From Nemertoderma westbladi (taxonomy: Eukaryota; Animalia; Xenacoelomorpha): DNA of 64,000 bases. The first letter of the stretch is position 1; each line of letters begins with the position of its first letter. A program made the translations under genes and the position numbers. The stretch is from contig JAUCBJ010001490.1 of the NCBI GenBank assembly GCA_032718475.1, positions 1 through 64,000 on the forward strand, written 5' to 3'. Of the stretch, positions 102 through 62,400 are shown piece by piece. The notes beneath the pieces were generated by a model. The model was not told the origin of the DNA and ran no database searches. It saw only the letters and a program-made list of their open reading frames with translations.

Positions 102-122
102 TTTATTATAGGGAGATTTATT
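102..122 (-). promoter_or_regulatory. Two AATAAA polyadenylation-signal candidates for MTMR9
   Basis: TTTATT on + at 102-107 and 117-122. These are the first AATAAA hexamers I could find on the - strand downstream of the MTMR9 stop, because the 31-bp satellite unit contains none. Confidence 0.45.
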
Positions 123-141
123 ACACATTATACATTTACAT

Positions 142-11998: not shown

Positions 11999-12003
11999 AC
12001 AAC

Positions 12004-19691: not shown

Positions 19692-20174
19692 CTAGAGATA
19701 TATAATTAACCAATATAGAGTTCATACGTATCTCATGCAATTTTAAGAAAACGATAAATCCATTATTATTATAGAATACAATTAAATACAACATCCCGAA
19801 ATTAACAAAACATATAAGATTGTATTTATTTAAGGTAACATTTGGAAAACATTAACCGTGGTTATCGGTGCGGTGGTGGTCCAAATATAATTAAACGAAT
19901 ATCAGAATAGTAATTTCGGTACAGGAAAAAAGTAAACTAAGTAATGTTACAAATCAGGTAGACTTCGCAAATTACAGTGAATTAATTGGAACTGTGCAAT
20001 TTAAAATTCAGACAATGTATCATCCACCATAATTAATAAGGTTACAAATACAGAAAAAGTGTATAACCTATAAAAAAATTAATTTTTTTACTTTTACGAC
20101 AACATGATAATGTTGATAATTTAATTTAATTTATATTGGTTAATTAATGAAAAGCTTTGGAACTTTTCCTTTAC
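19692..20174 (-). other. Predicted GT-AG intron (483 bp, phase 1)
   Basis: Donor TTTG|GTAAAG and acceptor CTCTAG|AT. AT-rich interior. Joins the two long ORFs in frame (G+AT = Asp). Confidence 0.7.
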
Positions 20175-41500: not shown

Positions 41501-44492
41501 ACTCCTCACACACAGAAACAACTTTCGGAAACCAGTTGCAGAAACTTGTTGGACTCTTCATACACAGAAACAAGTTTCGGAAACAAGTTGCAGGAACTTG
41601 TTGCTGGACTCTTCACACACAAAAACAAGTTTCAGAAACTTGATGCTGGACTCCTCACACACAGAAACAAGATTCGGAAACAAGTTGCAGAAACGTGTTG
41701 CTGGGCTCCTCACACACAAAACAAGTTTCGGAAACAAGTTGTAGAAACCTGTTGCTGGACTCTTCCACACAGAAACAAGTTGCAGAAATTTGTTTGATTC
41801 CTCGCCACAGAAACAAGTTTCGGAAACAAGTTGCAGCAACTTGTTGCTGGGCTCCTCACACACAAAACAAGTTTCGGAAACAAGTTGTAGAAACTTGTTG
41901 CTGGACTCCTCACCACAGAAACAAGTTTCGGAAACAAGTTGCAGAAACTTGTTGGACTCCTCACACACAGAAACAAGTTGCAGAAACGTGTTGCTGGACT
42001 CCCTCACACACAGAAACAAGTTTCGGAAACAAGTTGCAGAAACTTGTTGGACTCCTCGCCACAGAAAAAAGTTGCAGAAACTTGTTGGACTCCTCACCAC
42101 AGAAACAAGTTTCAGAAACAAGTTGCAGAAACTTATTGGACTCCTCACACACAGAAACAAGTTTCGCAAACAAGTTGCAGGAACTTGTTGGACTCCTCCC
42201 ACACAGAAACAATTTGCAGAAACTTGTTGCTGGACTCCTCACACACAGAAACAAGTTTCGGAAACCAGTTGCAGAAACTTGTTGCTGTTGGACTCCTCAC
42301 ACACAGAAACAATTTGCAGAAACTTGTTGCTGGACTCCTCACACACAGAAACAAGTTTCGGAAACAAGTTGCAGGAACTTGTTGGACTCCTCACACACAG
42401 AAACAATTTGCAGAAACTTGTTGCTGGACTCCTCACACACAGAAACAAGTTTCCGAAACCAGTTGCAGAAACTTGTTGGACTCCTCACACACAGAAACAA
42501 TTTGCAGAAACTTGTTGCTGGACTCCTCACACACAGAAACAAGTTTCGGAAACCAGTTGCAGAAACTTGTTGGACTCTTCATACACAGAAACAAGTTTCG
42601 GAAACAAGTTGCAGGAACTTGTTGGACTCCTCACACACAGAAACAATTTGCAGAAACTTGTTGCTGGACTCCTCACACACAGAAACAACTTTCGGAAACC
42701 AGTTGCAGAAACTTGTTGGACTCTTCATACACAGAAACAAGTTTCGGAAACAAGTTGCAGGAACTTGTAGCTGGACTCTTCACACACAAAAACAAGTTTC
42801 AGAAACTTGATGCTGGGCTCCTCACACACAGAAACAAGTTTCGGAAACAAGTTTCAGAAACTTGTTGCCGGACTCATCACACACAGAAACAAGATTCGGA
42901 AACAAGTTGCAGAAACGTGTTGCTGGGCTCCTCACACACAAAACAAGTTTCGGAAACAAGTTGTAGAAACCTGTTGCTGGACTCTTCCACACAGAAACAA
43001 GTTGCAGAAATTTGTTTGATTCCTCGCCACAGAAACAAGTTTCGGAAACAAGTTGCAGCAACTTGTTGCTGCAACTTGTTGGACTCTTCATACACAGAAA
43101 CAAGTTTCGGAAACAAGTTGCAGGAACTTGTAGGTGGACTCTTCACACACAAAACAAGTTTCGGAAACAAGTTGTAGAAACTTGTTGCTGGACTCCTCAC
43201 CACAGAAACAAGTTTCGGAAACAAGTTGCAGAAACTTGTTGGACTCCTCACACACAGAAACAAGTTGCAGAAACGTGTTGCTGGACTCCCTCACACACAG
43301 AAACAAGTTTCGGAAACAAGTTGCAGAAACTTGTTGGACTCCTCACACACAGAAACAAGTTTCGGAAACAAGTTGCAGAAACTTGTTGGACTCCTTGCCA
43401 CAGAAAAAAGTTGCAGAAACTTGTTGGACTCCTCACCACAGAAACAAGTTTCGGAAACAAGTTGCAGAAACTTATTGGACTCCTCACACACAGAAACAAG
43501 TTGCAGAAACGTGTTGCAGGACTCCCTCACACACAGAAACAAGTTTCGGAAACAAGTTGCAGAAACTTGTTGGACTCCTCACCACAGAAACAAATTGCAG
43601 AAACTTGTTGGACTCCTCGCCATTGAAACAAGTTTCGGAAACAAGTTGCAGAAACTTGTTGGACTCCTCGCCATAGAAACAAGTTTCGGAAACAAGTTGC
43701 AGAAACTTGTTGGACTCCTCACCACAGAAACAAGTTTCGGAAACAAGTTGCAGAAACTTGTTGGACTCCTCACCACAGAAACAAGTTTCGGAAACAAGTT
43801 GCAGAAACTTGTTGGACTCCTCGCCATAGAAACAAGTTTCGGAAACAAGTTGCAGAAACTTGTTGGACTCCTCACACACAGAAACAAGTTTCGGAAACAA
43901 GTTGCAGAAACTTGTTGGACTCCTCACCACAGAAACAAGTTTCGGAAACAAGTTGCAGAGACTTATTGGACTCCTCACACACAGAAACAAGTTTTGGAAA
44001 CAAGTTGCAGAAACGTGTTGCTGGACTCCCTCACACACAGAAACAAGTTGCAGAAACTTGTTGGAATCCTCACCACAGAAACAAGTTTCGGAAACAAGTT
44101 ACAGAAACGTGTTGCTGGACTCCCTCACACACAGAAACAAGTTTCGGAAACAAGTTGTAGAAAGTTGTTGGACTCCTCACCACAGAAACAAGTTTCGGAA
44201 ACAAGTTGCAGAAACGCGTTGCTGGACTCCCTCACACACAGAAACAAGTTTCGGAAACAAGTTGTAGAAACTTGTTGGACTCCTCACCACAGAAACAAGT
44301 TTCGGAAACAAGTTGCAGAAACTTGTTGGACTCCTCACCACAGAAACAAATTTCGGAAACAAGTTGCAGAAACTTGTTGGACTCCTCGCCATAGAAACAA
44401 GTTTCGGAAACAAGTTGCAGAAACTTGTTGGACTCCTCACACACAGAAACAAGTTTCGGAAACAAGTTGCAGAAACTTGTTGGACTCCTCAC
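32583..44492. repeat. Complex satellite (39-55 bp monomers built from 13-bp subunits), left arm
   Basis: Consensus GGACTCCTCACACACAGAAACAAGTTTCGGAAACAAGTTGCAGAAACTTGTT. Contains multi-kb higher-order duplications. Confidence 0.98.
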
Positions 44493-45015
44493 TGTTAGCT
44501 TATTCAATCCCGCCAACACCCCATAAAGTTATAAGCCGATAAGCAATATTGGGAGCCACGAGATTGGGCAATTAACCAACTCGTGCCATCCCAATGAGAG
44601 TGGGAAGGAAGCACACAATAGAGGGTCAGGGGCCAAACCCCTAACCCAGAGAACACAGGTGGAGTGAACGGGAATACTCCACGGGGCGCCAACAAGGGTA
44701 TTAACCAATCAGAGGGGGGGAATGGCATCGATTGAGTAGCAGTAAGGCCACCGTGCAATATAACCAATAACCTATTAATCAGTGATTCAGTTATCTCAGT
44801 GTAGCAGTGCTAGCGTAGGTTGGTAGTCAATTAGTTTAGTTAGGGGATCACGGGACTTTAGTTACCGTATCCCGCCTTGTACACATTATATCTATATCTA
44901 TATCCTATGCCCTATTATTATTATACACCGAACTTCAGAACTCAGTTACTTTATTTCACCCTTATACACGGCGGGGACGCGTGGACTAAATTACCACATC
45001 GGATAAATCGGCACA
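44493..45015 (+). repeat. 5' LTR (523 bp; 19-bp deletion near its 3' end relative to the 3' LTR)
   Basis: TGTTAGCTTATT...ATAAATCGGCACA. Nearly identical to 58895-59436 but lacks GATCCCTCCTGGATCCCGT. Confidence 0.95.
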
Positions 45016-45024
45016 GTAACTAAA
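45016..45024 (+). promoter_or_regulatory. Non-canonical primer-binding site GTAACTAAA
   Basis: Directly follows the LTR with no TGG. Reverse complement of TTTAGTTAC at 44857-44865 in the LTR. Repeated at 48345-48353. Confidence 0.6.
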
Positions 45025-45095
45025 TCCGAGCTGCCGCCCCAGTTAAACTCTAAGAACTACACTGCTAGCTAGCCGAACTCCACCGACCAGACGAG

Positions 45096-47978
45096 ATGAG
45101 TGAATCGGGCGAGACACCGACGCGGACCCCGGACGAAGATCAAACGATCCGCGAGGCCGCGACCAAGCGATACAGGCCCACGACGCCGGAGCCATCGATA
45201 ACGGGCGAACCGGAAGTCCAGAACGAGGAGAGTCTGGAACCCGAAGTCGAGCCAAGAGAGAAAGGGAGCGAGATGGAGGGAGATGGAGACGAGTCGACAC
45301 GGGACGGAGAACGGCGCGCCGATGTCGCCGGCCAGCTACCGGCCGAGGGCGACGAGCGGCCCACCGAAACGGCGACGGTGGGGCCGACGGTGCGACGCCG
45401 GACGCGAAGAGATGGAGGAGAGATCGGTACCGATGTCGCCGGCCAGCTACAGGCCGAGGGCGACGGACGGCCCACCGGAACGGCGACGGTGGAGCCGCCG
45501 GTACGACGTCGAACCCGGAGGGACGGAGGAGAGGTCGGCGACGAGGATGTCGGGGTTTCAGAGCGACTTCGACGGGCCTACAACGCGACCCGGAAGCTGA
45601 TGAAGGACGCCAAGAAGGAAGGGGCGAAGGTAGACGAGGTGAGACTGAGAAAGCGACTAGGTGAGTCGGATAGACACTTTAATTATCTAATACGTTTTGG
45701 GCAGAGAGAACTAGCCGAAACGAGAGCACATGAGATTGCCGGGGAACTGTTTGAACTATGGGAATGTGGGAGTGTGGAACCTAGCGTAGCGTCAGTGTAC
45801 ATAGGGCCATACTTGGTCGATGCCTGGGGAGTAAAACCAGTAGGTTGGAGGGGACTCGAAGGGGGCGAATCCGAGGTTAACCCCGAGGATTCGGCCTCGT
45901 CGGTCGGAGAAAGCTCCGGGAAGCAGGGGAAAGTCAGTAGGTCGGGAAGGCGGGGGAAATCCGTCGTAACCGATAAGTCTGTTACATCCTCCGCGAAAGA
46001 AAGAGCGGTGAGAGAAATAGGTGCCGCATACCGTCTCAGCATGGCAGAGCAAGGTCATAGAGAAATGAAGGAACGGCTAGAGGAAGGGAGAGTGCGGTTA
46101 GAGAGGGAAACGGCATTGCTTAAAGAAACCGGAGAGAGGGCCGAAAGGGCTTTGAAAAGCCTAAGGGAGTATGATGAGATAGAGGAAAGGGAGTGTAGGG
46201 AGCGTGAGGCAAGGGAGGAAAGGGAACGCAAGGAGCGTGAGGCGGAACGCAAGGAGCGTGAGGCGAGAGAGGAAAGGGAACGCAAGGAGCGTGAGGCAAG
46301 GGAGGAAAGGGAACGCAAGGAGCGTGAGGCGGAACGCAAGGAGCGTGAGGCAAGGGAGGAAAAGGAATGCAAAGAGCGCGAAGTGAGACGAAGGGAGAGC
46401 ATTAAGAGTGCTGCAGAGTCGGCCATCAGGGACATCCAGGAGCGTGAGAGGAGAATGGCAGAGACTGAAAAAGAGCGCAAGGAATTAGAGAGACGGCAGA
46501 GTGAGTTTGCGGGAGATAAGATTAGACGGGCACACGAGCTGCAACTGGTGCGAGCGTCGCCGTCTGAAAGCGGGGCCGGCTCGAGTATTTTTAGGGAGCC
46601 GGGGGCCGTAGATACATTTATTAATACCCCACTGACAGGGACCGCACGACAGACTCAAGACTGGTGCGACCGTACGGGCGGGGGGGGGGGGGGGGTAATA
46701 ATAATAATGGTACAGTAGACGTTGTTGATATTGATAATACCGTATGGGACAACACTAATCAAACCTTTATTACAGGGAATGCTTTACATAGTGGTAGTAA
46801 TTTAAATTTAAATCAGAACGCCCCTAGTATTAATGTAGGAAATAATTCTGATATTAATGTAGCTACGCAAAATAATTCAAATAATCAAAATAATAACCCA
46901 GATTCGAATCTACAAAATAATTTAAATAACGCAATTACGCAAAATAATTAGAATAATTTAAATAATGACCTATGCCCGAATTTACAAAATAATTCAGATA
47001 ACGTAGTCGTGCAAAATAATACAAATAACTTTGTTCCAAACGAGCAAAATAATTCCGTTTCCAATATGGGTGCTATTAATGTAAACACGTCGGGCCTACA
47101 TAACCAGGGAGCAGAGGGCCTGGTAGGCCACGTAGTTAGTAGACAGGGAGCAGAGGGCCTGGTAGGCCACGTAGTTAGTAGACAGGGAGCAGAGGGCCTG
47201 GTAGGCCACGTAGTTGGTAGGCAGGGAGTAGAGGGCCTGGTAGGCCATGTAGTTGGTAGGCAGGGAGTAGAGGGCCTGGTAGGCCACGCAATAGCAGAGG
47301 GAGAGGCGGGGGTGAATGGACCCGACCGCAGTAGGGTTGATGTGTCGACTAGAGAGGTATATAATAGCGGGGAGAGAGGTAGCGAAGTTAGACGTAGCGA
47401 GTGGGGGGAGGGGGGGGGGGCTACGAGGACCCCACAACAGAGAGTTAGCGGCGAGAGGGGGGGGGGGGGCAGGGAGTGTCCCACAGCCGTCAGCGGATAA
47501 TGCGAGGGCCGAAATAGGTAAACCGCAACGACCGGCGACGGAAAGTAATAGGGGGATCGCGAGTATCCCCAGCGGCGTGCGACCGAGCAGAGAGAGACAG
47601 GTTGATGTCGCGAGAGGGCGGACGAAGCGTCGAGCCCGATCAGAGGAGGGAAGAAGAACAGTGGGGTTTAACCGGGAGGTCGACGAGAGATCTCGCGAGC
47701 GGGAATATTCCACTGATAGGAGAAGAAAGGAAGACAGTAGTAGAAGTATCGCCGCAAACGATAGAAGAGTGAGAATGGATAGCGAGCCGTCGGTGGTCGA
47801 GATGAGAACGGAGAGTCAGTGGGGTCGGACTCCGGGAGATTGCCGTCGCCCCGGAGGGATGCGACCCGGTGAGATGCATTACACGCCGAGAGAGGGGTAC
47901 ATGATGTACCGGTACGAAGATGAGAACAATAGAGGGTCAGGGGCCAAACCCCTAACCCAGAGAACACAGGTGGAGTGA
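45096..47978 (+). pseudogene. Disrupted N-terminal extension of gag (E/R/K coiled coil, Asn-rich tract, 39-bp repeats)
   Basis: ORFs 45096-46718, 46664-46951, 47009-47500 and 47316-47978 join via frameshifts at poly-G runs and one in-frame TAG (46949-46951). Runs into the internal LTR. Confidence 0.65.
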
Positions 47979-48344
47979 ACGGGAATACTCCACGGGGCGC
48001 CAACAAGGGTATTAACCAATCAGAGGGGGGAATGGCATCGATTGAGTAGCAGTAAGGCCACCGTGCAATATAACCAATAACCTATTAATCAGTGATTCAG
48101 TTATCTCAGTGTAGCAGTGCTAGCGTAGGTTGGTAGTCAATTAGTTTAGTTAGGGGATCACGGGACTTTAGTTACCGTATCCCGCCTTGTACACATTATA
48201 TCTATATCTATATCCTATGCCCTATTATTATTATACACCGAACTTCAGAACTCAGTTACTTTATTTCACCCTTATACACGGCGGGGACGCGTGGACTAAA
48301 TTACCACATCGGATAAATCGGGATCCCTCCTGGATCCCGTCACA
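47926..48344 (+). repeat. Internal, 5'-truncated third LTR copy (LTR positions ~123-542) followed by a second PBS
   Basis: Near-identical to the terminal LTRs from ACAATAGAGGGTCAGG to GATCCCGTCACA, followed by GTAACTAAA. Confidence 0.95.
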
Positions 48345-48507
48345 GTAACTAAAACGTTTTAAAAAAAAAACAGTACGAAGGTGAAGGCAGTAGAGGGGGG
48401 GGGGGGGTCGAAGAGAAACTTTCCGACGGAATACACCTATCGATCGAGACTACGGTAGCCGCGGGGAGGATTATTCGAGAAGAATAAACTTCGATCCCGA
48501 GCAACAC

Positions 48508-51500
48508 ATGCAGACTGTAGGGCATACTGTAGGTCTTACTGCACATACCGTAGGCCACACTGAGAGAGGCAATGTAGGCGATAGGATAGCGCGGACGACG
48601 GAATTAAACCCGGAAGTCGCGGAATACGTACCGGCGAGTAGGCCAGAAGCTGATAGGCCTATACCGGTACCAACACAGCAGTATGACTACAGCATGCAGG
48701 GACATAACATATACCCAGGGGAGGGGGGAATTATTGCGGATAGGTGCATGGGCCCCAACATATTAACATCAACCCCATTACCAAACATACCGGTGGGGGG
48801 GGGACAGGGTGACATTCCCCCATCACAATATCAACAATATACCCCGATGGTAGCAAGAACAACGAGACCCCTGGACGAAAACAGATCGTGTGACACAGAT
48901 ATATGGAGGGGGCCGCTACCCCCAATGACATACCCAAGCCAGAGAAGGTCAAGAAGTAGGACAGACGGAACGCACCAAACAGGGGAAACTATACAGCACC
49001 CGTCGAATCCATTGGAAGCGCAGGCGATAGGGATGGCCACGTTGATCGATGCTTTGAAAACGAGGATCGAGTTACCACCCGTGGAACCATTCAAGTTCGA
49101 CGGGAGTAGGCCGGAAGAATATTTACAATTTCGGCGAATGTATAGTAACGAAATACTAACAAAAAACTTGACGCAGGCGGAGTGCCTAAAGTATCTACAA
49201 GTGTACACGGGAGGCCCAGCATACGATATCGTGAGGCAATATCAGGGAATAGAGGGCGGCTTCACGACAGCATGGCGGGCACTGGATAGGGAATACGGGC
49301 ACCCGGCCAAGATCATCAGGCAGACGCTGAGAGGCATAACATCGGGTGGCCTACAGGATAACCCCGTTAGCATCAAGGCGTTTGCTAACAAAGTCGAAAA
49401 GGCGCTAATCGTGCTGAAGACGCTAGACGCGCCGTACGAGCTCAACGCGTCCAACAACATCACCACGATAGCGCAGGCACTACCGAACTGGCTGCGCAAC
49501 AAGTGGAGGAAGATCGCTTTCTCCACTCGAGACAAGAAGGGTGCGGATGCGGAACCGGGTTTAGAAGAAATGTCAAACTTCTTAAATTACGAGGCTGAAC
49601 TAATAACGGACCCAGTCTATAGTGAAGATAGCCTGGGAAAGGGACCAAAGACAGATCACTACAGGCCGAAACCAGAGCACAATACATCAAACGCATTGCC
49701 GAGACTCAGGCAATCATTGCCATACGCAGCGACCCAGGGGACTGCAAGTCCACAGGCAAACGAAGACAAGACTACATCATGGAACGGACAGGGGAACAAT
49801 AACAACATGAATAAACATAACCCCAGTACGTCCAGTAGGCCAAATCCAGTCAATAAGAATAGTAGGGACTTTGGTACGAATATAACTGCGATACGCAATG
49901 CATTGTATAAAGAGGGCTACGACCCAAAGAGCAAATGCCAGTTACACGCAAATGCACTTCATAAAACCATGAACTGCAGGTACTGGCAGGCGCTACCGAG
50001 GCAAGACCAGATAGATTACGCGTCGAGCAATAAAATCTGCTCGCGATGTGTGAAGAGTGGACACAAGGCCAGGGAATGCCAAGAGAAGCCGGTCAAGTTT
50101 GGCCAAAGGAGAGGCCAAACGATGGCAACGAGCACGGTAGGGGCGAAGAAGAGAGGCACGGTGTTACTTGGAGTAGTACCGGTGCGAGTGATCGGGGAAG
50201 GCAATCGATCAGTAACAACACTAATGCTGGTTGATAGTGGAGCTGCCTTCACATTAGTCGAGGAATGGGTAGCCGAAGAAATAGGATTGAGAACAAGGCC
50301 AAGCAAAATGGCGGTAACAACCATCTCTAGCAAAGATGAGATCCTAGAGATGAGGACAGGACGGTGCGCAATTGCAGCAGTGGCACCAGGATGCGATTAT
50401 GGGGCAACCATCGACCCCATCCAAGTAATAGAGTCAATTAACATCAATGCCAGGCGGCCAACCAACATCGAGGTCGAGCAATACAAATTCCTGGACGACA
50501 TTGACTTCTCGATCCCAGACGTGGACGTTAGGAAGGTATCCATCATAGTAGGAATGGACTGCCCGACGGCCCACGAAAGAATGCAAACGGTCTTCGGCGA
50601 AGACAAGCAGAGCAACCCGGTGGCCATATTAACACCATTCGGGTGGACGCTGAGTGGTCCAATAAAGAGCAAGATACCATTTAGGATGTCGGAGACATCA
50701 GGATGCATGTTCGCGGGAACAATGCAGGAAATGGGCGATGAGGGAGCAGAGGAGCAGCTTAAAAGACTCCTCAGGCAAGATTTCGAGGGACTGAAAGAAA
50801 CCGGGGTTGGGACCTCGGTGGAAGACAAGCAGGCTCTACAAAGCGTGGAGGGATCAATGACATGCGATGAGGGACGGTATACTATAGGAATGGTATGGAA
50901 ACTACCGAAGATACCGTTACCCGACAATAGGGGGATGGTACTCACGAGACTCCGCAAACTGAAACAAACACTAAAACGGAGCCCCGAGAAGAATGAGTAC
51001 ATCCACAGGACGATTAAGAAGTACGTCGAGAAAGGATGGGCCGTGGAGTTACCGGTCGACGAGCCGAACACGGATAGAACATATTACCTGCCACTGCACG
51101 TGGCTTTAGATCCAAAGAAAGGTAAACTAAGGATGGTAGTCGACGCATCGGCGAAGACCGACGGAAAATGCTTAAATGATTACCTGTTGGAAGGCCCAAA
51201 TATTTACAATTCGGGCATAGAGGTGTTACTTAGATTTCGAAATGGGAAACACGCCTTCACGTGTGACATAGAAGGCATGTTCAACCAGGTCTGTGTAACG
51301 GAAGAAGACAGTGACAGTCAACGCTTCTTATGGTATAACGGCGAAGAAGAACCGCCGGTAATACCAGCGTATAAGATGGTAGTACAAAACATGGGGGCCA
51401 AGTCGTCCTCATTTACGACGACTATGGCAGTGAGAGACACGGTAAAGGGCAAGGAAGATAGATACAGCAGTAGGGCCGTCGATATGATCCGACGCGGCTT

Positions 51501-54141
51501 CTACGTAGACGACGGTATGGAGTCTGGAAATACGGTTGAGGAGATACTGGAAACAGGGCGCGAGGTTCGCGACATCCTGAAAGGATCCGGCTTCAACCTG
51601 ACCAAATTCCAATCCAGTTCAGAAGAATTTATCAAGGCAATAGAGGACAAGAAACCAGAATCGACCATGGACAACCCTACAACAGCCAAAGGACAGGACA
51701 TGGCGAATAAGAGAATACAATCTCAGCAAAAGGCGTTGGGAATCGTGTGGGATAGAGGAACAGACGAACTGAAGTATCAGCTGAGCCAGGAGGGCGCAGA
51801 CACCCATACGAAGAGGGGTTATGTATCGTATATAGCAAGGATATACGATCCCCTAGGCCTAGCATCCCCATTACTAGTCACGGGGAAACAGATACTCAAG
51901 AGAGTATATAAATTGAAGGATGAGTGGGACGTAGAGGTACCAGAGGACATCAAGAAACAGTGGAGCAAATGGACAGGAGACTTGGAGAGGATGGGAACAT
52001 ACAACATGCCGCGAGTGTATTTTCCGGACGGGAACATGACGAATCTGGATCTACTTATGTTCTCCGACGCGTCGTTAGAGGCATACGGAGCGGCACTCTA
52101 TTTGGTACAACGAGGGGGGGCTCACAAGCCCAGACTAGCCTTTAGCAAAGCTAAGTCAATGCCGCCAGATTCAGCATCTGTTCCCAAGTTAGAATTGACA
52201 GCTGCGAGACTAGGAGTTAGAGCCACAGCCTACCTAGTGGATACAATTCCCAACATAGTGGAGACACACTACTGGACGGACTCCATGGTAGTGCTTGGTT
52301 GGCTACACAACGAAAAGACGAGATACCCGATATTCATCGCGAATAGAGTGGACGAAATAAGGGCGAGCACAGAACTGGAAAGGTGGCACTACTGCCCAAC
52401 GGACGAGAACCCAGCGGACTTGCTGTCGAGGGGCGTGGAACGCCACACTTTCCTGAAGAAGGAAGCATTGTGGCAACATGGGCCACAATTTCTGAGCGTT
52501 AAAGAGGCCTGGCCGCCAATGAGAAAGGTGGAGCCGGGCTCAGAAGTAGTGTCAGAGGGAGAAGAGGGAAACTCAGAGGGAGAAGAGATATACTCCCAGA
52601 TGGTGAGGGAGATTAGGGACGTGCAACCAAAGCAAGAACTACGCGATAACCCGACGGACAAACTCCTCAGCTACAGTTCTAGTTGGTACAAGACCAAGAA
52701 ATTAGTGGCGTACTGGAGAGCTTTCGGGAATTTCCTCGCGGGAGTTAATAAGGAGAAGAAAACCAGGGAAACCATAGATCTGGAAGGAGCGGCCAAGGCA
52801 ATAATCCGCTATGAACAACGAAAGAACTACGGCGACGAGGTGGAACGCGTCGGTAACCAACAGCACCTCCGACGGGGCAGCGAGTTGATTACGCTGTCGC
52901 CACAACTCAACGACGATGGGATTCTAGTAATGAATTCTAGGGTGGGATATAACAACAGCATAGTCGTGCCACCGAAACCCATCATCATTCCCACAGGATC
53001 ACCAATAGTCCACCAGATCATATGGGAATCCCACAAATCGATACTGCATGGGGGCACCAACCGAACCCTCACCGAGATAAGGAGGACCTTTTGGGTCAAA
53101 CAACTAAGGAAGAAGGTTAAAGCGGTAGTGGGGCAGTGCCAGACCTGCCGACGGGCGAAGAAGGAGCGAGCCATACAGGAGATGGCGCCACTACCGGCGA
53201 GTAGGGTAAGACAGCACGACCCGCCATTTACGCATTGTGGTGTGGACATGTTCGGGCCGATAAAGATCAAGGTGATGCGACACACGGAGAAACGCTACGG
53301 TATTATCTTCGTATGCAACAATACACGGGCGGTAGGGATAGAACTCGCCCAAGATGCAACCGCATCAGCATTCATTAACGCCTTAGAAAGGTTTAGGGAC
53401 CGCAAAGGTGGGACGATCGCAGTGATATACAGCGACAACGGCACCAACTTTGTGGGCGCAGAGAGTGAGATGGCAGAGGCCTTGGACATCTTGGAGGGAG
53501 AAGAAGTCAGGGCAGCCATGAGGAGACGACAAGTAAAGTGGGAGAGAAGGACGCCGTATGCACCACATACACTAGGATGCGTCGAGAGACTGGTGGGCAG
53601 TTCAAAGCGTCTAATGACGAAGTTAATGAACACCCACATGGTCACTGAGGACGTCTTACGGACAGTACTTGCGAAGTGCGAGGGGATCATTAATAGCAGA
53701 CCGCTATACCCGGAGAATGATGACCCTGAGTCATTAGACGTGTTGACGCCTAGCCATTTTCTGATGGAAAGGCCAGCGACCATCGATATGCAGGGTGTAG
53801 ATCCAGATGATATACATTCCCGCCAGAGTTGGAAAGTCGCTAAAGCAATAAGCGCAGAGTACTGGAGGAGGTGGGTAGAAGAATACCTACCCACGCTCCA
53901 TAAGCGAAGCAAGTGGAGGAAACCGAACAGGGAGTTAAAAGAGGGAGATCTCGTAATCGTCACGGATGATACTATCATCAACAACCAATGGCGGTTGGCG
54001 AGAGTTGTAGGCACCTACTCCGACGAGGACGGAAGAGTCCGATCGGTAGAAGTGCGAATAGGTGGAAAGATAGGTGCGAAGGACAGAAAAACTTACAGGA
54101 GAGCTGTAGGGAAATGCTGTCTTCTAGAAGGGGCACCTTAA
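48508..54141 (+). CDS. BEL/Pao Gag-Pol polyprotein (1877 aa, intact)
   Basis: DUF1759-like gag (PFKFDGSRPEEYLQF); zinc knuckles (CQLH..H...C, CSRCVKSGHKAREC); protease LVDSGA; RT RMVVDAS / DIEGMFNQV / FYVDD; Pao RNase H FSDASLEAYG, PKLEL, WTDS, ENPAD; integrase HHCC, VDMFGP, SDNGTNF, GCVERL; DUF5641-like WVEEYLPTL. Confidence 0.97.
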   Translation: MQTVGHTVGLTAHTVGHTERGNVGDRIARTTELNPEVAEYVPASRPEADRPIPVPTQQYDYSMQGHNIYPGEGGIIADRCMGPNILTSTPLPNIPVGGGQGDIPPSQYQQYTPMVARTTRPLDENRSCDTDIWRGPLPPMTYPSQRRSRSRTDGTHQTGETIQHPSNPLEAQAIGMATLIDALKTRIELPPVEPFKFDGSRPEEYLQFRRMYSNEILTKNLTQAECLKYLQVYTGGPAYDIVRQYQGIEGGFTTAWRALDREYGHPAKIIRQTLRGITSGGLQDNPVSIKAFANKVEKALIVLKTLDAPYELNASNNITTIAQALPNWLRNKWRKIAFSTRDKKGADAEPGLEEMSNFLNYEAELITDPVYSEDSLGKGPKTDHYRPKPEHNTSNALPRLRQSLPYAATQGTASPQANEDKTTSWNGQGNNNNMNKHNPSTSSRPNPVNKNSRDFGTNITAIRNALYKEGYDPKSKCQLHANALHKTMNCRYWQALPRQDQIDYASSNKICSRCVKSGHKARECQEKPVKFGQRRGQTMATSTVGAKKRGTVLLGVVPVRVIGEGNRSVTTLMLVDSGAAFTLVEEWVAEEIGLRTRPSKMAVTTISSKDEILEMRTGRCAIAAVAPGCDYGATIDPIQVIESININARRPTNIEVEQYKFLDDIDFSIPDVDVRKVSIIVGMDCPTAHERMQTVFGEDKQSNPVAILTPFGWTLSGPIKSKIPFRMSETSGCMFAGTMQEMGDEGAEEQLKRLLRQDFEGLKETGVGTSVEDKQALQSVEGSMTCDEGRYTIGMVWKLPKIPLPDNRGMVLTRLRKLKQTLKRSPEKNEYIHRTIKKYVEKGWAVELPVDEPNTDRTYYLPLHVALDPKKGKLRMVVDASAKTDGKCLNDYLLEGPNIYNSGIEVLLRFRNGKHAFTCDIEGMFNQVCVTEEDSDSQRFLWYNGEEEPPVIPAYKMVVQNMGAKSSSFTTTMAVRDTVKGKEDRYSSRAVDMIRRGFYVDDGMESGNTVEEILETGREVRDILKGSGFNLTKFQSSSEEFIKAIEDKKPESTMDNPTTAKGQDMANKRIQSQQKALGIVWDRGTDELKYQLSQEGADTHTKRGYVSYIARIYDPLGLASPLLVTGKQILKRVYKLKDEWDVEVPEDIKKQWSKWTGDLERMGTYNMPRVYFPDGNMTNLDLLMFSDASLEAYGAALYLVQRGGAHKPRLAFSKAKSMPPDSASVPKLELTAARLGVRATAYLVDTIPNIVETHYWTDSMVVLGWLHNEKTRYPIFIANRVDEIRASTELERWHYCPTDENPADLLSRGVERHTFLKKEALWQHGPQFLSVKEAWPPMRKVEPGSEVVSEGEEGNSEGEEIYSQMVREIRDVQPKQELRDNPTDKLLSYSSSWYKTKKLVAYWRAFGNFLAGVNKEKKTRETIDLEGAAKAIIRYEQRKNYGDEVERVGNQQHLRRGSELITLSPQLNDDGILVMNSRVGYNNSIVVPPKPIIIPTGSPIVHQIIWESHKSILHGGTNRTLTEIRRTFWVKQLRKKVKAVVGQCQTCRRAKKERAIQEMAPLPASRVRQHDPPFTHCGVDMFGPIKIKVMRHTEKRYGIIFVCNNTRAVGIELAQDATASAFINALERFRDRKGGTIAVIYSDNGTNFVGAESEMAEALDILEGEEVRAAMRRRQVKWERRTPYAPHTLGCVERLVGSSKRLMTKLMNTHMVTEDVLRTVLAKCEGIINSRPLYPENDDPESLDVLTPSHFLMERPATIDMQGVDPDDIHSRQSWKVAKAISAEYWRRWVEEYLPTLHKRSKWRKPNRELKEGDLVIVTDDTIINNQWRLARVVGTYSDEDGRVRSVEVRIGGKIGAKDRKTYRRAVGKCCLLEGAP

Positions 54142-54249
54142 ATTGGAGTTAGAGTGGAGTTTAGTCGTCCAAGTTTTGGACTGAGGGGGGTGGGATTGAG
54201 GGCAAGACGCCCTTCCCACACAAATAAAAATAAAATAAAATAAAAATAA

Positions 54250-55160
54250 TAGTTAGTTAGTTAGTAGGTACGTAGTACCTAGAGTTAGTTAGTTAGTAGG
54301 TACGTAGTACCTAGAGTTAGTTAGTTAGTAGGTACGTAGTACCTAGAGTTAGTTAGTTAGTAGGTACGTAGTACCTAGAGTTAGTTAGTTAGTAGGTACG
54401 TAGTACCTAGAGTTAGTTAGTTAGTTAGAGGGTACGTAGTACCGTTAGTTAGAGTTAGAGTTAGAGGGTACGTAGTACCGTTAGTTAGAGTTAGAGTTAG
54501 AGGGTACGTAGTACCGATAGTTAGAGAGTTAGAGGGTACGTAGTACCGTTAGTTAGAGTTAGAGTTAGAGGGTACGTAGTACCGATAGTTAGAGAGTTAG
54601 AGGGTACGTAGTACCGTTAGTTAGAGTTGAGTTAGAGGGTACGTAGTACCGATAGTTAGAGAGTTAGAGGGTACGTAGTACCAATAGTTAGTTAGAGTTA
54701 GAGGGTACGTAGTACCGATAGTTAGAGAGTTAGTAGGTACGTAGTACCTAGTTAGAGTTAGAGTTAGAGGGTACGTAGTACCGATAGTTAGAGAGTTAGA
54801 GGGTACGTAGTACCGTTAGTTAGAGTTAGAGTTAGAGGGTACGTAGTACCGATAGTTAGAGAGTTAGAGGGTACGTAGTACCAATAGTTAGTTAGAGTTA
54901 GAGGGTACGTAGTACCAATAGTTAGAGAGTTAGTAGGTACGTAGTACCTAGTTAGAGTTAGAGTTAGAGGGTACGTAGTACCGATAGTTAGAGAGTTAGT
55001 AGGTACGTAGTACCTAGTTAGAGTTAGAGTTAGAGGGTACGTAGTACCAATAGTTAGTTAGAGTTAGTAGGTACGTAGTACCTAGTTAGAGTTAGAGTTA
55101 GTAGGTACGTGGTACCTAGTTAGAGTTAGAGTTAGGGGGTACGTAGTACCATTAGTTAGA
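54250..55160 (+). repeat. Tandem array of ~27 hairpin-bearing 32-36 bp units
   Basis: Core GGTAC-GTA-GTACC separated by (TTAG/TTAGAG)n linkers. Confidence 0.95.
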
Positions 55161-55657
55161 GAGAGAGAGTGAGAGATAAAAGGGGTAAATAGGATATAGA
55201 TATTAGTTAGCAGTAAGTAGAGTTAGTAGCGAGAGGGGGGCATATGAGTACAGCTGGATAAATCGTGTGGCCACACGACGCATACTGCTGTACTGCATGG
55301 GCCCACAGAGTAGGCCAGAATATGGATCAGAGAATAGAATAAACCCATAGGCAGTAGTAGGTAGTAGGACAGTAGAATCAAAGCAAACAAACAAATAAAT
55401 AGAATAGGGCTAAAATCGTAAAATAGTGGCAACACAAGGAAAGTCGTTCTAGAACATAATAAAAGTAACGGACGGAAATTGTAAATTAGGCTGATTTACT
55501 AGCTCCGAAATTAATTAGGTTAAATTTAGCTTGAAAGGCGCAATTAAGTAGAAAGTAGGCCATTATCGAACTGTACGAAACATCTTAAATACTTCACTCA
55601 TCTGTATTGCGCCTTGGTAAGGCACCACCCTGCAGGTGAGCGAGTGTAGTGTTCGGA

Positions 55658-55993
55658 ATGGCGAGTAAGTTGATCAGGAAGAGGAAGGCGGAGTCAGGAG
55701 GAAAAGAAATACTGGTGGATTTCACCGAAAGACACCCGGAAGAGAAGACGAGAGGATACTACGAGAAGTTGGAAAGGGGTCACGCGGCACGAGCGCTGCA
55801 GGACCACTTCCGGGAGATGCACGAGCAGCGGCTGGTCGGGACCTACGGAACGCCGTCGCTGGACAACGCGATCTTCCAACACTTCCACTACGTGGTGAAA
55901 GGGGACGAGGCGAAGTTCGGGATTCCGAAGTATCCAAGGGAATCGCCGAGGAAGGACTGGAAAAGATTCATAGAGTCCGTCAACAGAGGATGA
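55658..55993 (+). CDS. Accessory ORF segment A (unknown; in frame with the exonuclease ORF)
   Basis: Purine-rich open frame with element-like codon usage. Ends at TGA one codon before the next ATG in the same frame. Confidence 0.5.
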   Translation: MASKLIRKRKAESGGKEILVDFTERHPEEKTRGYYEKLERGHAARALQDHFREMHEQRLVGTYGTPSLDNAIFQHFHYVVKGDEAKFGIPKYPRESPRKDWKRFIESVNRG

Positions 55994-55996
55994 TAT

Positions 55997-56902
55997 ATGA
56001 TCCTAGATGACGAGGGAACCGTGGAAGACGAAGCGGGTTCGAGACGAGGAACGGCAGGGTCGGCCAGGACCATACTCCTACATTTGGCCGCGCCAAATGG
56101 GGACATCTTCTTATTCGACCTAGGGACGTATGGGAAGAAGGACGGGCCGAAATTAGACCGATTACCGAAAGCGGTACAAGTCTTAGTAAGAGAGAAGTCG
56201 ACGACGAAAGTGGGATTGGCGATTCGCGAGGACGCGGAGAGGATCATCGGTCCGGACGCCACCAACCTCCTGGATATGCAGAAAGTCTTTATGGCTATGG
56301 CGGCACCGGATGGATTGGGGGTGGTCGAGAATACAGGCCAATGCGGGGCGGTGGCGATGGGCCAATTATTGGGGCTCGTATGCCACAAACCGATGGACTG
56401 GGGAAAGTTTAGGGAAGAATACGGGGCAGAACTAGCGAACTCGCTGAAGTGGGGAGCGAGACCGGGAAAGCAGGAGGTATATCAGTTTCGCAGAGGAGCG
56501 ATAAAGGTATATCAGAAGCGATATATCCTGCAGGAGGACTGGATGATGATAAGTTTGCTTAACTTATTCATGACCGTAGTTATCGAAAGGGAACCAGGGG
56601 CATTTCTGTTATCGGGATCACCCCTAAGCTACAGGAGAGCCTTTAAAGTGGCCTTTGACGGTCTGGTAGACCACCCGGGGCTGAAGGGCGAGTCGGTGTA
56701 CTACAACAGCCGACATCTGGTAGACGGGGAGACAGATACACCGTATCAGAGATGGGAGCAGCTAGAGGCGGACAGACGAGAAGCAAAGCGACTGGAAGAA
56801 GTCGCTAGACGGGAGAGGATAGAAGCAGAGGAGAGGGAAGAGGAGGCCAGGGCACAGAGTTACGGCTTCGAGGAACAGGCGGGCCTAGACGAACTTCATT
56901 GA
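55997..56902 (+). CDS. DEDDy (RNase D/WRN/Mut-7-like) 3'-5' exonuclease domain
   Basis: ExoI ILDDEG, LLHLA..IFLFD, LPKAVQVLVREKSTTKVGLAIREDA (ExoII), NLLDMQ, and ExoIII-like QKRYILQED. Recognised by motif pattern only. Confidence 0.75.
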   Translation: MILDDEGTVEDEAGSRRGTAGSARTILLHLAAPNGDIFLFDLGTYGKKDGPKLDRLPKAVQVLVREKSTTKVGLAIREDAERIIGPDATNLLDMQKVFMAMAAPDGLGVVENTGQCGAVAMGQLLGLVCHKPMDWGKFREEYGAELANSLKWGARPGKQEVYQFRRGAIKVYQKRYILQEDWMMISLLNLFMTVVIEREPGAFLLSGSPLSYRRAFKVAFDGLVDHPGLKGESVYYNSRHLVDGETDTPYQRWEQLEADRREAKRLEEVARRERIEAEEREEEARAQSYGFEEQAGLDELH

Positions 56903-58192
56903 ACTTCGTCAGGGAGTTCGGGGGAGTCTCTAGGGCGAGAATTGGGATGGACGGTGGGATCGCCGAAAAAGTCGACGTCGGGGTTGCAAACGATGCCCAT
57001 ACCAGCGGGCGCCGAGGGCGACCAACCGCCAAGGAAGTTAAGGGAGCTAGAGGGATGGAGAGCTACGGGCGAGAGTCAAGGCGGGAAGGGACATAGTGGA
57101 TCCATCGGGATACCGGGATTGGAGACACTACCAGAAGAGGAGGATGGCGACGACGAGTTCGGAGAGATGCCGCCCATCGAGAGGATAGGCCACTCGGACA
57201 CGGACTGGGTTGGCGGAAGGGTGGTGACAGCCAGTGGGGCGAGGGCCTTCTGGAACAGATCCGGCAAGCGGACCTGGGTGCACGAGGAGCCGGCGATGGA
57301 TTTCGCGGGGAGCACCATCAGGTTGGGCGAGCAACCGGGGACGGCACCACGGATAGTATTCGGGGAGACGATGCCCGAGAGGGGCGGAGAGATCGACGTA
57401 AACAGGGAGACCAACGTAGAGAAGTTCGCCTACCAGCGACTCCACAGACCGCGGAGATCGCTTGGGACGAAAGACGAGGTGGGACGGGAGACATTGGTAC
57501 TCGGCTGCGACTACTGCGGGAGACAGACCCATCGGGAAAGCAGCTGCCTATACCGGTTCCAAAAGGGAACCTTCTGTCTCTACTGCAGAGAACCAAGTCA
57601 CAGGATGGGGGCGTGTCCACGGTTGCATAACCGATGTCCAAAGTGCCACTTTCGGGGACACTACGGACGCGAGTGCGACTGGATGAACGACGAGGAGAAG
57701 TTCACAAGGTTCGAGGAGTGGGCCGACGTCGGGGCCATGACGCGCCAGCGCATGAAGGCCCAAGAGTTCAAGTGGGGTTTCTTCCTCATAAACCAGGAGA
57801 CCCACATGGAAATCATAAAGCGAAGGTTACCGTTTACCTATCAAGAGGTAGCAACGGCTGCGTCGTTCGCCGGAGTTATGAACACGCAACGGTACCTGGA
57901 CAGGTGGACACCAGAGAACCGGAGGGAGTTTAGGGATTTCTTGGCGGAACACGTACCAAAGGCAATGAAAATGATCCTATGGGACGCCACGCGAGGGAGA
58001 CAACCAGGCCATTCTGAGGGGCCACCGGCGAAGCGGTATCGGGCATTAATAACACCAGCGCCCAAGGAGCCGACGACCGGGATCAGCAAGGAAGTGGCGG
58101 CGAAGGTCCGGAAGCAGAAAGCGGATGATGCCAGAGGAACGGTGATAACCAAGAAACGGGCCAGGGAAGAGGACGTGAGGAGGAACAGATAA
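56903..58192 (+). CDS. Accessory ORF segment C with three CCHC zinc knuckles
   Basis: CDYCGRQTHRESSC, CLYCREPSHRMGAC and CPKCHFRGHYGREC (CX2CX4HX4C). The frame is open from 56903, in frame with the exonuclease ORF. Confidence 0.75.
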   Translation, partial: TSSGSSGESLGRELGWTVGSPKKSTSGLQTMPIPAGAEGDQPPRKLRELEGWRATGESQGGKGHSGSIGIPGLETLPEEEDGDDEFGEMPPIERIGHSDTDWVGGRVVTASGARAFWNRSGKRTWVHEEPAMDFAGSTIRLGEQPGTAPRIVFGETMPERGGEIDVNRETNVEKFAYQRLHRPRRSLGTKDEVGRETLVLGCDYCGRQTHRESSCLYRFQKGTFCLYCREPSHRMGACPRLHNRCPKCHFRGHYGRECDWMNDEEKFTRFEEWADVGAMTRQRMKAQEFKWGFFLINQETHMEIIKRRLPFTYQEVATAASFAGVMNTQRYLDRWTPENRREFRDFLAEHVPKAMKMILWDATRGRQPGHSEGPPAKRYRALITPAPKEPTTGISKEVAAKVRKQKADDARGTVITKKRAREEDVRRNR

Positions 58193-58885
58193 GTTCCCAG
58201 ATACGAGGGAGTGAGACTGAGACTGGGACGTGGTGCGCCTGGAAGGCGCCGCATGGAACGTACGAACCATTAAGTACAAATTTAATTAATGCAAATAATC
58301 ATATAAGTGCAATTTGTATGTACGTACGTAGTAATTAGCAGTAAAATACACGATCGGAGTAAGTACTATAGTCATACAACCTTTCTCAACTAGCTAGTGG
58401 GACTGGGGGATAACTGACTATGGCACTGTGGACGAGACGCCAGACAATTTCACACCTCTTGAGTGCGACGGCACGAGAGAGGGGGGGGAGATTCGTCAGA
58501 AGGTATGAGGTAGTCAAAGTGGGGTTGAGGAACGGAGTAAGAGTGCGAAGTGCGGAGAGAGTACGAACGCAATTCTAGTGTGGGGGGGAGAATAAGAGGC
58601 TGAGTAAGGGACGAGGAGGTCCGAATGTGAGAGAGTTATGGTGAGAGTGAAGGTGAGGTAGGGCGGAAATGTTGGGGAAACAAAAGTTGCGTGGGAGGTG
58701 AGCGCGATCGGCCCGACATGAGACGCCAGGCACACAGGGTAGCGTTATCATACCCATAGGGGGCGGCCTGGAAAGCCAGCTCCTAGAGAAAAGAATTCCA
58801 CCCCACACCCGATACTAGATCGGGATCCAGCAGGATTGTAACGCACTTTTAGGTTGATGCTATCTTCTTACCGGGAAGATAGCAT

Positions 58886-58894
58886 GGGGGGGAG
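58886..58894 (+). promoter_or_regulatory. Polypurine tract
   Basis: GGGGGGGAG immediately before the TG of the 3' LTR. Confidence 0.85.
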
Positions 58895-59436
58895 TGTTAG
58901 CTTATTCAATCCCGCCAACACCCCATAAAGTTATAAGCCGATAAGCAATATTGGGAGCCACGAGATTGGGCAATTAACCAACTCGTGCCATCCCAATGAG
59001 AGTGGGAAGGAAGCACACAATAGAGGGTCAGGGGCCAAACCCCTAACCCAGAGAACACAGGTGGAGTGAACGGGAATACTCCACGGGGCGCCAACAAGGG
59101 TATTAACCAATCAGAGGGGGGGAATGGCATCGATTGAGTAGCAGTAAGGCCGCCGTGCAATATAACCAATAACCTATTAATCAGTGATTCAGTTATCTCA
59201 GTGTAGCAGTGCTAGCGTAGGTTGGTAGTCAATTAGTTTAGTTAGGGGATCACGGGACTTTAGTTACCGTATCCCGCCTTGTACACATTATATCTATATC
59301 TATATCCTATGCCCTATTATTATTATACACCGAACTTCAGAACTCAGTTACTTTATTTCACCCTTATACACGGCGGGGACGCGTGGACTAAATTACCACA
59401 TCGGATAAATCGGGATCCCTCCTGGATCCCGTCACA
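58895..59436 (+). repeat. 3' LTR (542 bp)
   Basis: TGTTAGC...GATCCCGTCACA followed by the TSD CTCAC. Confidence 0.97.
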
Positions 59437-62400
59437 CTCACCACAGAAACAAGTTTCGGAAACAAGTTGCAGAGACTTATTGGACTCCTCACACACAGAA
59501 ACAAGTTTTGGAAACAAGTTGCAGAAACGTGTTGCTGGGCTCCTCACACACAAAACAAGTTTCGGAAACAAGTTGTAGAAACCTGTTGCTGGACTTTTCC
59601 ACACAGAAACAAGTTGCAGAACTTTGTTTGATTCCTCGCCACAGAAACAAGTTTCGGAAACAAGTTGCAGCAACTTGTTGCTGGGCTCCTCACACACAAA
59701 ACAAGTTTCGGAAACAAGTTGTAGAAACTTGTTGCTGGACTCCTCACCACAGAAACAAGTTTCGGAAACAAGTTGCAGAAACTTGTTGGACTCCTCACAC
59801 ACAGAAACAAGTTGCAGAAACGTGTTGCTGGACTCCCTCACACACAGAAACAAGTTTCGGAAACAAGTTGCAGAAACTTGTTGGACTCCTCGCCACAGAA
59901 AAAAGTTGCAGAAACTTGTTGGACTCCTCACCACAGAAACAAGTTTCGGAAACAAGTTGCAGAAACTTATTGGACTCCTCACACACAGAAACAAGTTGCA
60001 GAAACGTGTTGCAGGACTCCCTCACACACAGAAACAAGTTTCGGAAACAAGTTGCAGAAACTTGTTGGACTCCTCACCACAGAAACTTGTTGGACTCCTC
60101 GCCATTGAAACAAGTTTCGGAAACAAGTTGCAGAAACTTGTTGGACTCCTCACCATAGAAACAAGTTTCGGAAACAAGTTGCAGAAACTTGTTGTTCTCC
60201 TCACCACAGAAACAAGTTTCGGAAACAAGTTGCAGAAACTTGTTGGACTCCTCGCCATAGAAACAAGTTTCGGAAACAAGTTGCAGAAACTTGTTGGACT
60301 CCTCGCCATAGAAACAAGTTTCGGAAACAAGTTGCAGAAACTTGTTGGACTCCTCACACACAGAAACAAGTTTCGGAAACAAGTTGCAGAAATTTGTTGG
60401 ACTCCTCACCACAGAAACAAGTTTCGGAAACAAGTTGCAGAAACTTGTTGGACTCCTCACACACAGAAACAAGTTTCGGAAACAAGTTGCAGAAACTTGT
60501 TGGACTCCTCACACACAGAAACAAGTTTCGGAAACAAGTTGCAGAAACTTGTTGGACTCCTCACACACAGAAAGAAGTTTTGGAAACAAGTTGCAAAAAC
60601 GTGTTGCTGGACTCCCTCACACACAGAAACAAGTTTCGGTAACAAGTTGCAGAAACTTGTTGGACTCCTCACACACAGAAACAAGTTGCAGAAACTTGTT
60701 GGACTCCTCACCACAGAAACAAATTTCGGAAACAAGTTGCAGAAACTTGTTGGACTCCTCACACACAGAAACAAGTTTCGGAAACAAGTTGCAGAAACTT
60801 GTTGGACTCCTCACCACAGAAACAAGTTTCGGAAACAAGTTGCAGAGACTTATTGGACTCCTCACACACAGAAACAAGTTTTGGAAACAAGTTGCAGAAA
60901 CGTGTTGCTGGGCTCCTCACACACAAAACAAGTTTCGGAAACAAGTTGTAGAAACCTGTTGCTGGACTCTTCCACACAGAAACAAGTTGCAGAAATTTGT
61001 TTGATTCCTCGCCACAGAAACAAGTTTCGGAAACAAGTTGCAGCAACTTGTTGCTGGGCTCCTCACACACAAAACAAGTTTCGGAAACAAGTTGTAGAAA
61101 CTTGTTGCTGGACTACTCACCACAGAAACAAATTTCGGAAACAAGTTGCAGAAACTTGTTGGACTCCTCACACACAGAAACAAGTTGCAGAAACGTGTTG
61201 CTGGACTCCCTCACACACAGAAACAAGTTTCGGAAACAAGTTGCAGAAACTTGTTGGACTCCTCGCCACAGAAAAAAGTTGCAGAAACTTGTTGGACTCC
61301 TCACCACAGAAACAAGTTTCGGAAACAAGTTGCAGAAACTTATTGGACTCCTCACACACAGAAACAAGTTGCAGAAACGTGTTGCAGGACTCCCTCACAC
61401 ACAGAAACAAGTTTCGGAAACAAGTTGCAGAAACTTGTTGGACTCCTCACCACAGAAACAAATTGCAGAAACTTGTTGGACTCCTCGCCATTGAAACAAG
61501 TTTCGGAAACAAGTTGCAGAAACTTGTTGGACTCCTCGCCATAGAAACAAGTTTCGGAAACAAGTTGCAGAAACTTGTTGGACTCCTCACCACAGAAACA
61601 AGTTTCGGAAACAAGTTGCAGAAACTTGTTGGACTCCTCGCCATAGAAACAAGTTTCGGAAACAAGTTGCAGAAACTTGTTGGACTCCTCGCCATAGAAA
61701 CAAGTTTCGGAAACAAGTTGCAGAAACTTGTTGGACTCCTCACACACAGAAACAAGTTTCGGAAACAAGTTGCAGAAACTTGTTGGACTCCTCACACACA
61801 GAAAGAAGTTTTGGAAACAAGTTGCAAAAACGTGTTGCTGGACTCCCTCACACACAGAAACAAGTTTCGGTAACAAGTTGCAGAAACTTGTTGGACTCCT
61901 CACACACAGAAACAAGTTGCAGAAACTTGTTGGACTCCTCACACACAGAAATAAGTTTCGGAAACAAGTTGCAGAAACTTGTTGGACTCCTCGCCATAGA
62001 AACAAGTTTCGGAAACAAGTTGCAGAATCTTGTTGTACTCCTCACCACAGAAACAAGTTTCGGAAACAAGTTGCAGAAACGTGTTGCTGGACTCCCTCAC
62101 ACACAGAAACAAGTTTCGGAAACAAGTTGTAGAAAGTTGTTGGACTCCTCACCACAGAAACAAGTTTCGGAAACAAGTTGCAGAAACTTGTTGGACTCCT
62201 CACCACAGAAACAAGTTTCGGAAACAAGTTGCAGAGACTTATTGGACTCCTCACACACAGAAACAAGTTTTGGAAACAAGTTGCAGAAACGTGTTGCTGG
62301 GCTCCTCACACACAAAACAAGTTTCGGAAACAAGTTGTAGAAACCTGTTGCTGGACTCTTCCACACAGAAACAAGTTGCAGAAATTTGTTTGATTCCTCG

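Follow-up and report, generated by a model that had tools for sequence, protein, structure and literature searches.

In this study, we analysed a 64,000-nt stretch of the genome of Nemertoderma westbladi (hereafter the window) and found in it a BEL/Pao LTR retrotransposon that has no tRNA-type primer site and that probably primes its minus-strand synthesis with its own RNA, from a site at 44857-44865 within the LTR. The preliminary description of this DNA had proposed self-priming from this site or from a second one further downstream; the former is the best explanation in view of its conservation in the family, the predicted structure and the relatives, and the latter is not conserved. Taken alone, the locus provides moderate evidence, and the stronger signal comes from the relatives. 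All features of the element given below lie on the + strand, and genes on the other strand are marked (-).

The element (44493..59436; 14.9 kb) is flanked by a 5-bp target duplication (CTCAC, 44488-44492 and 59437-59441) and is inserted in a satellite array of 38-55-nt units. It is young, and its family is very abundant as judged by summed contig depth. The 5′ LTR (44493..45015; 523 nt, TG...CA) ends in ...CACA, and at the other end (58886..59436) a polypurine tract is followed by the 3′ LTR (58895-59436; 542 nt). The pol open frame (48394..54141; 1915 aa) encodes DUF1759, an aspartic protease, a reverse transcriptase with YVDD, Peptidase_A17/RNase H, the H2C2 and core parts of integrase, and DUF5641. 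The order of its Pfam domains (DUF1759, protease, Peptidase_A17 at 1.7e-38, Integrase_H2C2, DUF5641) is Pao-type; the frame is about 35% identical to its best homologues, all of which are Pao-type, and PF05380 is present in all 120 homologues listed. The Pao-type gag-pol with PR-RT-RH-IN order, together with the TG...CA LTRs, the target duplication and the polypurine tract, places the element in BEL/Pao (Belpaoviridae). Belpaoviridae/Semotivirus, as described by the ICTV, likewise have LTRs, a polypurine tract, gag followed by PR-RT-RH-IN, and the Pao-specific domains (PMC8742986). The element is longer than the 4.2-10 kb given for Belpaoviridae (PMC8742986), the excess being due to an LTR fragment within gag, a tandem array and an additional ORF.

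The 5′ part of the gag-like region (45069..47925) contains a coiled coil and repeats, with frame changes near G runs; a Pfam search of this region returned no match, and its identity as gag is suggested by its position. The internal tandem array (54249..55161), made of 32/68-nt units rich in GTTAG, sits between pol and the extra reading frame and matches the PBS complement over 7 nt at many places. The extra frame after pol (55649..58192) has two in-frame TGA stops, a 3′-5′ exonuclease-like part and Cys/His knuckles; it gave no significant Pfam match, and its similarity to DNA_pol_A_exo1 clusters (Atlas score 0.92, recognition 2269) is weak and below the reliable level. That it serves in primer trimming or small-RNA evasion is only a guess. 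The window further holds two unrelated satellites, an array of 31-nt units at 1-12000 and the higher-order array of 38-55-nt units at 32600-64000 that hosts the element. It also holds MTMR9 (12004-13668, -), which is a single 554-codon open frame about 52% identical to the listed animals of many phyla, a ZGRF1-like gene (20140-22608, -) with an 822-codon frame, and a 1274-codon open frame (16027-19851, -) with a strong strand skew and no Pfam match. The single long frames of MTMR9 and the ZGRF1-like gene suggest an intron-poor animal genome.

The PBS position (45016..45024) directly follows the 5′ LTR without a spacer and reads GTAACTAAA. As had been described, this sequence stands in place of TGG, and the first TGG occurs only at +220; GTAACTAAA is found again at 48345-48353, after the internal LTR fragment. 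A search for tRNA genes in the window was negative, and within 44400-59500 Rfam gave nothing at E<=1. The PBS is the exact reverse complement, over 9 nt, of site 1, the candidate self-primer TTTAGTTAC (44857..44865), which is followed by CG (AC^CG); this complementarity was confirmed, and every sequence named in the preliminary description lies where it had been placed. TTTAGTTAC occurs at 44857, 48167 and 59259, once in each LTR copy, the window containing no further occurrence, and the pairing reaches 12 bp if one base is bulged (GGA 44853-55 with TCC 45025-27). Site 2, TCAGTTACT (44942..44950), does pair with the PBS as proposed, over 6 nt or over 7 including the last LTR base, but it varies among the family copies (48255 G>A; an added T after 48258) and is unlikely to be the primer.

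Several null models were applied to the 9-nt match. Dinucleotide shuffles of the LTR reached 9 nt in 24 of 5000 cases at offset 0 and in 75 of 5000 at offsets 0-3, random 40-mer leaders did so in 3 of 1000, and among the 13,443 9-mers in the interior of the element, 26 find their complement in the LTR. When seven LTRs were compared with seven PBSs (a 7 x 7 matrix), the window's LTR obtained a score of 9 against its own PBS, the scores against the other six being 4-6. TTAGTTA is frequent on this strand (29 copies), and all six occurrences of TTTAGTTA fall in the three LTRs, two apiece. The match is real and modestly above chance; its 9 exact pairs are fewer than those found in the relatives and fall one short of the rule by which plant self-primers are called at >=10 bp, 0-5 nt after the LTR, in the available sections of PMC6317226.

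Between the 5′ and 3′ LTRs there is one substitution, and 19 nt of U5 are absent from the 5′ LTR. These 19 nt are a hairpin, which is present in the 3′ LTR and in the internal fragment. At the corresponding place of the 5′ LTR the family contigs run on into the hairpin, and the short U5 is therefore peculiar to the window's 5′ LTR copy. Its loss at 45011-45012 can be read as a hairpin-driven deletion or as an assembly error.

To describe variation in the family, contigs (unitigs) from three studies were aligned to the internal copy (48140-48440). The resulting table is complete for substitutions in rows of at least 4%, and its indels and loose ends are those among the rows listed. None of the 20 variant rows falls in 48140-48187 (site 1 and a stem arm), 48271-48306 or 48319-48353 (hairpin and PBS), although summed contig depth can mask rare variants at such conserved sites. 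Sixteen of the 20 lie in the loop between the arms of a predicted R stem, the arms themselves being without listed variants. Only three fall within the 66 paired positions out of 187 (hypergeometric 0.034), a count as low as which was given by 17 of 186 circular shifts (0.09). Compensatory changes between the LTR 9-mer and the PBS, to which the preliminary description had looked for support, were not seen among the family contigs. In a diverged-family contig (study X5, depth 62), PBS positions 5 and 7 carry transitions after which pairing with the window's site 1 would persist as G-U; since the contig's own site 1 is not visible, these changes do not amount to covariation. One further contig keeps the outer U5 stem with a different loop, and among the contigs of study X6, which we guess to be RNA, none lies over 44835-45176.

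The internal LTR fragment (47926..48353) interrupts gag. It runs from LTR nt 123 to the LTR end (48344), contains an intact U5 hairpin (48319-48339) and continues for 9 nt into a copy of the PBS. This copy is followed by a palindrome of 12 nt and a run of A (48349-48384), which can be read as fold-back or end-joining filler, and beyond these gag resumes; a 12-nt near-repeat is present on both sides of the inserted fragment (47912-47923). In one contig (study X3), 48344 and 48380 are linked through a stretch whose letters are not readable, and no contig lies over 48360-48370. The claim that exactly 9 nt beyond the LTR end are common to both places holds in that 9 nt are identical; the last three A's, however, continue into the A-rich filler, so that the shared tail is 6-9 nt. 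Plus-strand strong-stop DNA ends in a copy of the primer, and a tail of 6-9 nt is thus consistent with a short primer but not with a tRNA site of 18 nt. The fragment is compatible with a captured plus-strand strong-stop DNA, as a single event. Alternatively, it could have been copied as a repair patch from a 5′ LTR in the chromosome, the copying having ended at this point by chance.

In the predicted fold of the RNA, a long R stem (44866..44982) would form between approximately 44866-44882 and 44966-44982, with a variable AT-rich loop between them. The predicted primer helix stacks on this stem and adjoins the 8-bp U5 hairpin. For the copy with intact U5, the primer:PBS pairing was predicted at 0.86-0.99 over most pairs with starts at 48163-48170, and the fold had a z of -2.3. 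With upstream starts the predicted pairing was <=0.29 at all but one of the starts tested, and for the window's own 5′ LTR it ranged from 0.01 to 0.84 depending on the start and the leader length; the fold prediction is thus a fragile one. From a start at 44789 the predicted pairing was <=0.28, and site 1 was predicted to pair instead with GGACTAAA (44983..44990), its competing partner inside the LTR in MFE structures. This stretch includes ACTAAA (44985-44990), a candidate variant poly(A) hexamer. TCGGA (44997..45001), the first base of which is variable (48309 T>C), is a 5-bp partner of TCCGA in the leader (45025-45029), and the two may possibly form the U5-leader arm of a Tf1-type pretzel. 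A long LTR:leader duplex (44789-44856 with 45025-45075) was discarded as compositional, since equal stability was reached by 381 of 1000 and by 326 of 1000 shuffles. Likewise set aside was a hairpin enclosing site 1 (44844-44853 with 44865-44873), which is absent from the computed MFEs; the competitor in these is 44983-44990.

Where transcription starts bears on how the primer would be made. A candidate core promoter (44705..44792) comprises CCAAT at 44705, the TATA-like AATATAA at 44757 and a third Inr-like site, TCAGTT, at 44787, with the TATA-like motif 32 nt and the CCAAT box 84 nt upstream of the A of the last. Judged by these best promoter motifs, A44789 is the candidate start, which would put site 1 about 70 nt inside the RNA. 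The Inr-like TTAGTT that had been noted at site 1 is present (44858) and has no TATA; an Inr-type start there would fall on A44860 and give a 5′ end of 6 nt, not the 9 nt implied. The promoter motifs thus favour 44789, whereas the predicted folding and the internal relic would favour a start at 44853-44860. A start at 44789 would mean that the primer is shortened by a second cut or, failing that, that the relic is something other than strong-stop DNA. The 5′ end at 44789 itself (AGUUAU) was rejected as a primer, since no more than 6 pairs, including a wobble at the end, can form and a copy of it would mismatch the relic.

We propose that folding of the genomic RNA in its 5′ region would bring 44857-44865 onto the PBS, and that a cut after C44865 would provide a 3′-OH from which reverse transcriptase could extend the primer through U5 and R. 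By analogy with Tf1, the cut would be made by the element's own RNase H. The relic suggests that the 5′ end of the primer would lie 6-9 nt from the cut, for which transcription would have to begin at 44857-44860 or, if it begins at 44789, a second cut would have to follow.

Relatives of the element were taken from 79 metagenome loci (from the best 80 of at least 558 confirmed in a scan limited to 600 stretches), and 53 of them were examined; 8 were too short, 18 had no LTR pair and 27 had one. Left out were L053, L073, and the duplicates L022 and L042 (of L024 and L038, respectively). L024 and L073 are head-to-tail tandem BEL/Pao copies, 100% identical and sharing LTRs, and may be real tandems or assembly loops. 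Three of the six loci with alignment-fixed LTR ends (L004, L006, L033) carry a tRNA PBS of the TGGTCC type and lack a self match. The PBSs of L029, L031 and L038 pair over 12, 15 and 11 nt, respectively, with their own LTR and with no other, across the joint left by an intron that runs from GTAAGT or GTACGT to YAG (null 0/1000 each). Among the 15 loci without a fixed LTR end, four passed the null (L026, L079, L011, L036; 11-14 nt; 0-1/200) and 10 had no spliced match; L064 has a 13-nt match, given without a null. Unspliced candidates of 10-11 nt (L007, L039, L024, L023, L066) are also given without a null, and L065 showed no match. In viral contigs, no relative was found by a single protein or by a 24-nt LTR pattern, and one weak locus found by alignment was not used.

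In nine of the 11 candidate relatives AC forms the end of the primer, and CG follows in five, against 4% of AC overall, a motif that was found post hoc; site 1 of the window reads AC^CG, and site 2 reads AC^TT. The distance from the primer end to the LTR end is 74-244 nt in the passing loci without a fixed end and 169 nt in the window's element with intact U5. A TATA motif would place the primer at the RNA 5′ end in one of eight spliced candidates (L029) and lies 142 nt upstream in another, the remaining six having none, and the TATA-to-primer spacing in the relatives is thus uninformative. The loci with splice-built primers (L011, L026, L029, L031, L036, L038, L079) resemble the window's element in that they are BEL/Pao and have a non-tRNA PBS, mostly starting with GT, and a primer ending in AC. 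They differ from it in that an LTR intron must be removed to give their 11-15 pairs, whereas the window's family has no such intron. Their pol identity to it is about 31-34%, with no sister relation shown.

The pol tree (68 rows, midpoint root, loci with fewer than 750 aligned residues left out) was built without named references; the named groups of BEL/Pao are Pao, Bel, Sinbad, Suzu, Tas, Dan and Flow. In this tree, a clade with support of 1.0 unites the tRNA-type L004, L006 and L033 with the splice-type L011 and also L077, pointing to switches between priming modes. The window's element lies on a long branch with placement support of 0.37-0.70, from which neither inheritance nor independent origin follows. 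The proposal that self-priming arose independently here found no support, given that distant BEL/Pao relatives have LTR-complementary PBSs and that the tree cannot place the element. Inheritance is the simpler reading: self-priming probably came down from a more widespread BEL/Pao habit, with the primer usually split by an intron, and the window's family has the primer ready-made. A broader proposition, to which we give somewhat less than an even chance, is that much of BEL/Pao self-primes via a cut at AC^(C)G, usually with a splice-assembled primer, that the window's family has lost the intron and retains a ready-made primer of 9 nt, and that the relic is a strong-stop fossil recording the primer length.

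The conservation of site 1 may have a different cause. From a start at 44789 it pairs with 44983-44990 and may be conserved for this R hairpin alone. Site 1 would then be kept to pair with ACTAAA and hide a poly(A) signal, the PBS would share the hexamer by chance and another primer would be used. MFE structures contain this pairing for several starts, 44983-44990 is also without a listed substitution, the strand is biased towards TTAGTTA, and P values of 0.003-0.015 are not small given the many windows scanned. Nevertheless, we consider this explanation improbable: the PBS match consists of 9 exact pairs ending at the first post-LTR base, whereas the internal partner needs wobble and bulges, and the AC end and a PBS starting with GT recur in relatives with matches of 11-15 nt.

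A slightly poorer candidate is a host RNA ending in ...UUUAGUUAC, which might be half of a tRNA, a tRNA that is trimmed or mitochondrial, or a small RNA of another kind. It would give no reason for the LTR complement, and a fixed host RNA would resist the variation that the PBS shows in the diverged family. The lack of TGG rules out a mature tRNA 3′ end, and the 9-mer as an anticodon loop violates the U33/purine-37 rule. In favour of such a primer, the available sections of two sources report half-tRNA primers in copia lineages (PMC6317226) and the case of Cer1, for which a tRNA match was reported after the element had initially been described as having no PBS (PMC3315495). Least probable, and very much so, is self-priming by a spliced primer or from another site (site 2 at 44944; joints 44819/44945 and 44664/44834). 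Splice-built primers do pass nulls in seven relatives, and sites 1 and 2 both resemble AG|TTAC acceptors. Under strict splice signals, however, no joint in the window's LTR matches the PBS, and a loose search of the window over all GT/GC-AG pairs yielded only weak-signal joints; a splice-built primer was accordingly rejected for the window, which shows no intron of that class. The joint 44664/44834 gives 11 pairs, but its donor is weak, it lacks a pyrimidine tract and it was found among all GT/GC-AG pairs, the joint 44819/44945 gives 8 pairs, fewer than the unspliced 9, and site 2 is variable among copies. Self-priming from site 1 thus remains the preferred explanation.

The nearest parallel is Tf1, which self-primes with 11 nt cut by its own RNase H, according to the available sections of PMC7175516. 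In the sections available, self-priming is described for the Tf1/sushi group (PMC7175516, PMC4600332, PMC5341516) and predicted for Tcn1 and the TAR lineage of plant Ty1/copia (PMC6317226). In Tf1/Tf2 of Schizosaccharomyces pombe, Tj1 and Tf1/sushi, as far as these sources extend, the PBS directly follows the 5′ LTR and complements the element's own LTR, as in the window. The available text on the Tf1 pretzel gives three duplexes around the PBS (bioRxiv 10.1101/2022.12.06.519325); compared with what is given there, the element has a predicted U5 hairpin of 8 bp without listed variants, which is absent from its 5′ LTR, and a short candidate U5-leader arm that would complete the order of the duplexes. 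The window's element differs from Tf1 in having 9 bp, not 11, and an added long R stem beside the primer, and in being known from sequence alone. Unlike the Tf1/sushi elements, which are Ty3/gypsy chromoviruses, it has BEL/Pao proteins and no chromodomain match and is not a member of that group. It likely works like Tf1 without belonging to it. For TAR copia (Houba, Osr-1), self-priming has also been deduced from sequence outside the Tf1 lineage; TAR and Tcn1 belong to other superfamilies and hosts, and were called at >=10 bp (PMC6317226, available sections). The ICTV describes BEL/Pao replication as poorly understood, with an 18-nt PBS for tRNA-Arg or tRNA-Gly (PMC8742986), which the window's element lacks; the PBS is a descriptive trait there and not a basis of grouping. 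The available sections of the Sinbad paper (PMC554778) and of the BEL/Pao survey (PMC3118150) contain nothing on priming. Full-text literature searches turned up no report of self-priming or of a spliced primer in BEL/Pao; subscription journals and Repbase lay outside this scope, and a prior mention there is possible.

In summary, self-priming has been demonstrated for Tf1 alone, with predictions for a few lineages of gypsy and copia, and the locus described here, by itself a modest example, predicts exact RNA ends at 44865/44866. If the proposed priming is true, a third LTR superfamily would be independent of host tRNA, and PBS annotation based on tRNA would miss many elements. tRNA priming, splice-built primers and ready-made primers would then form a testable evolutionary series within BEL/Pao.
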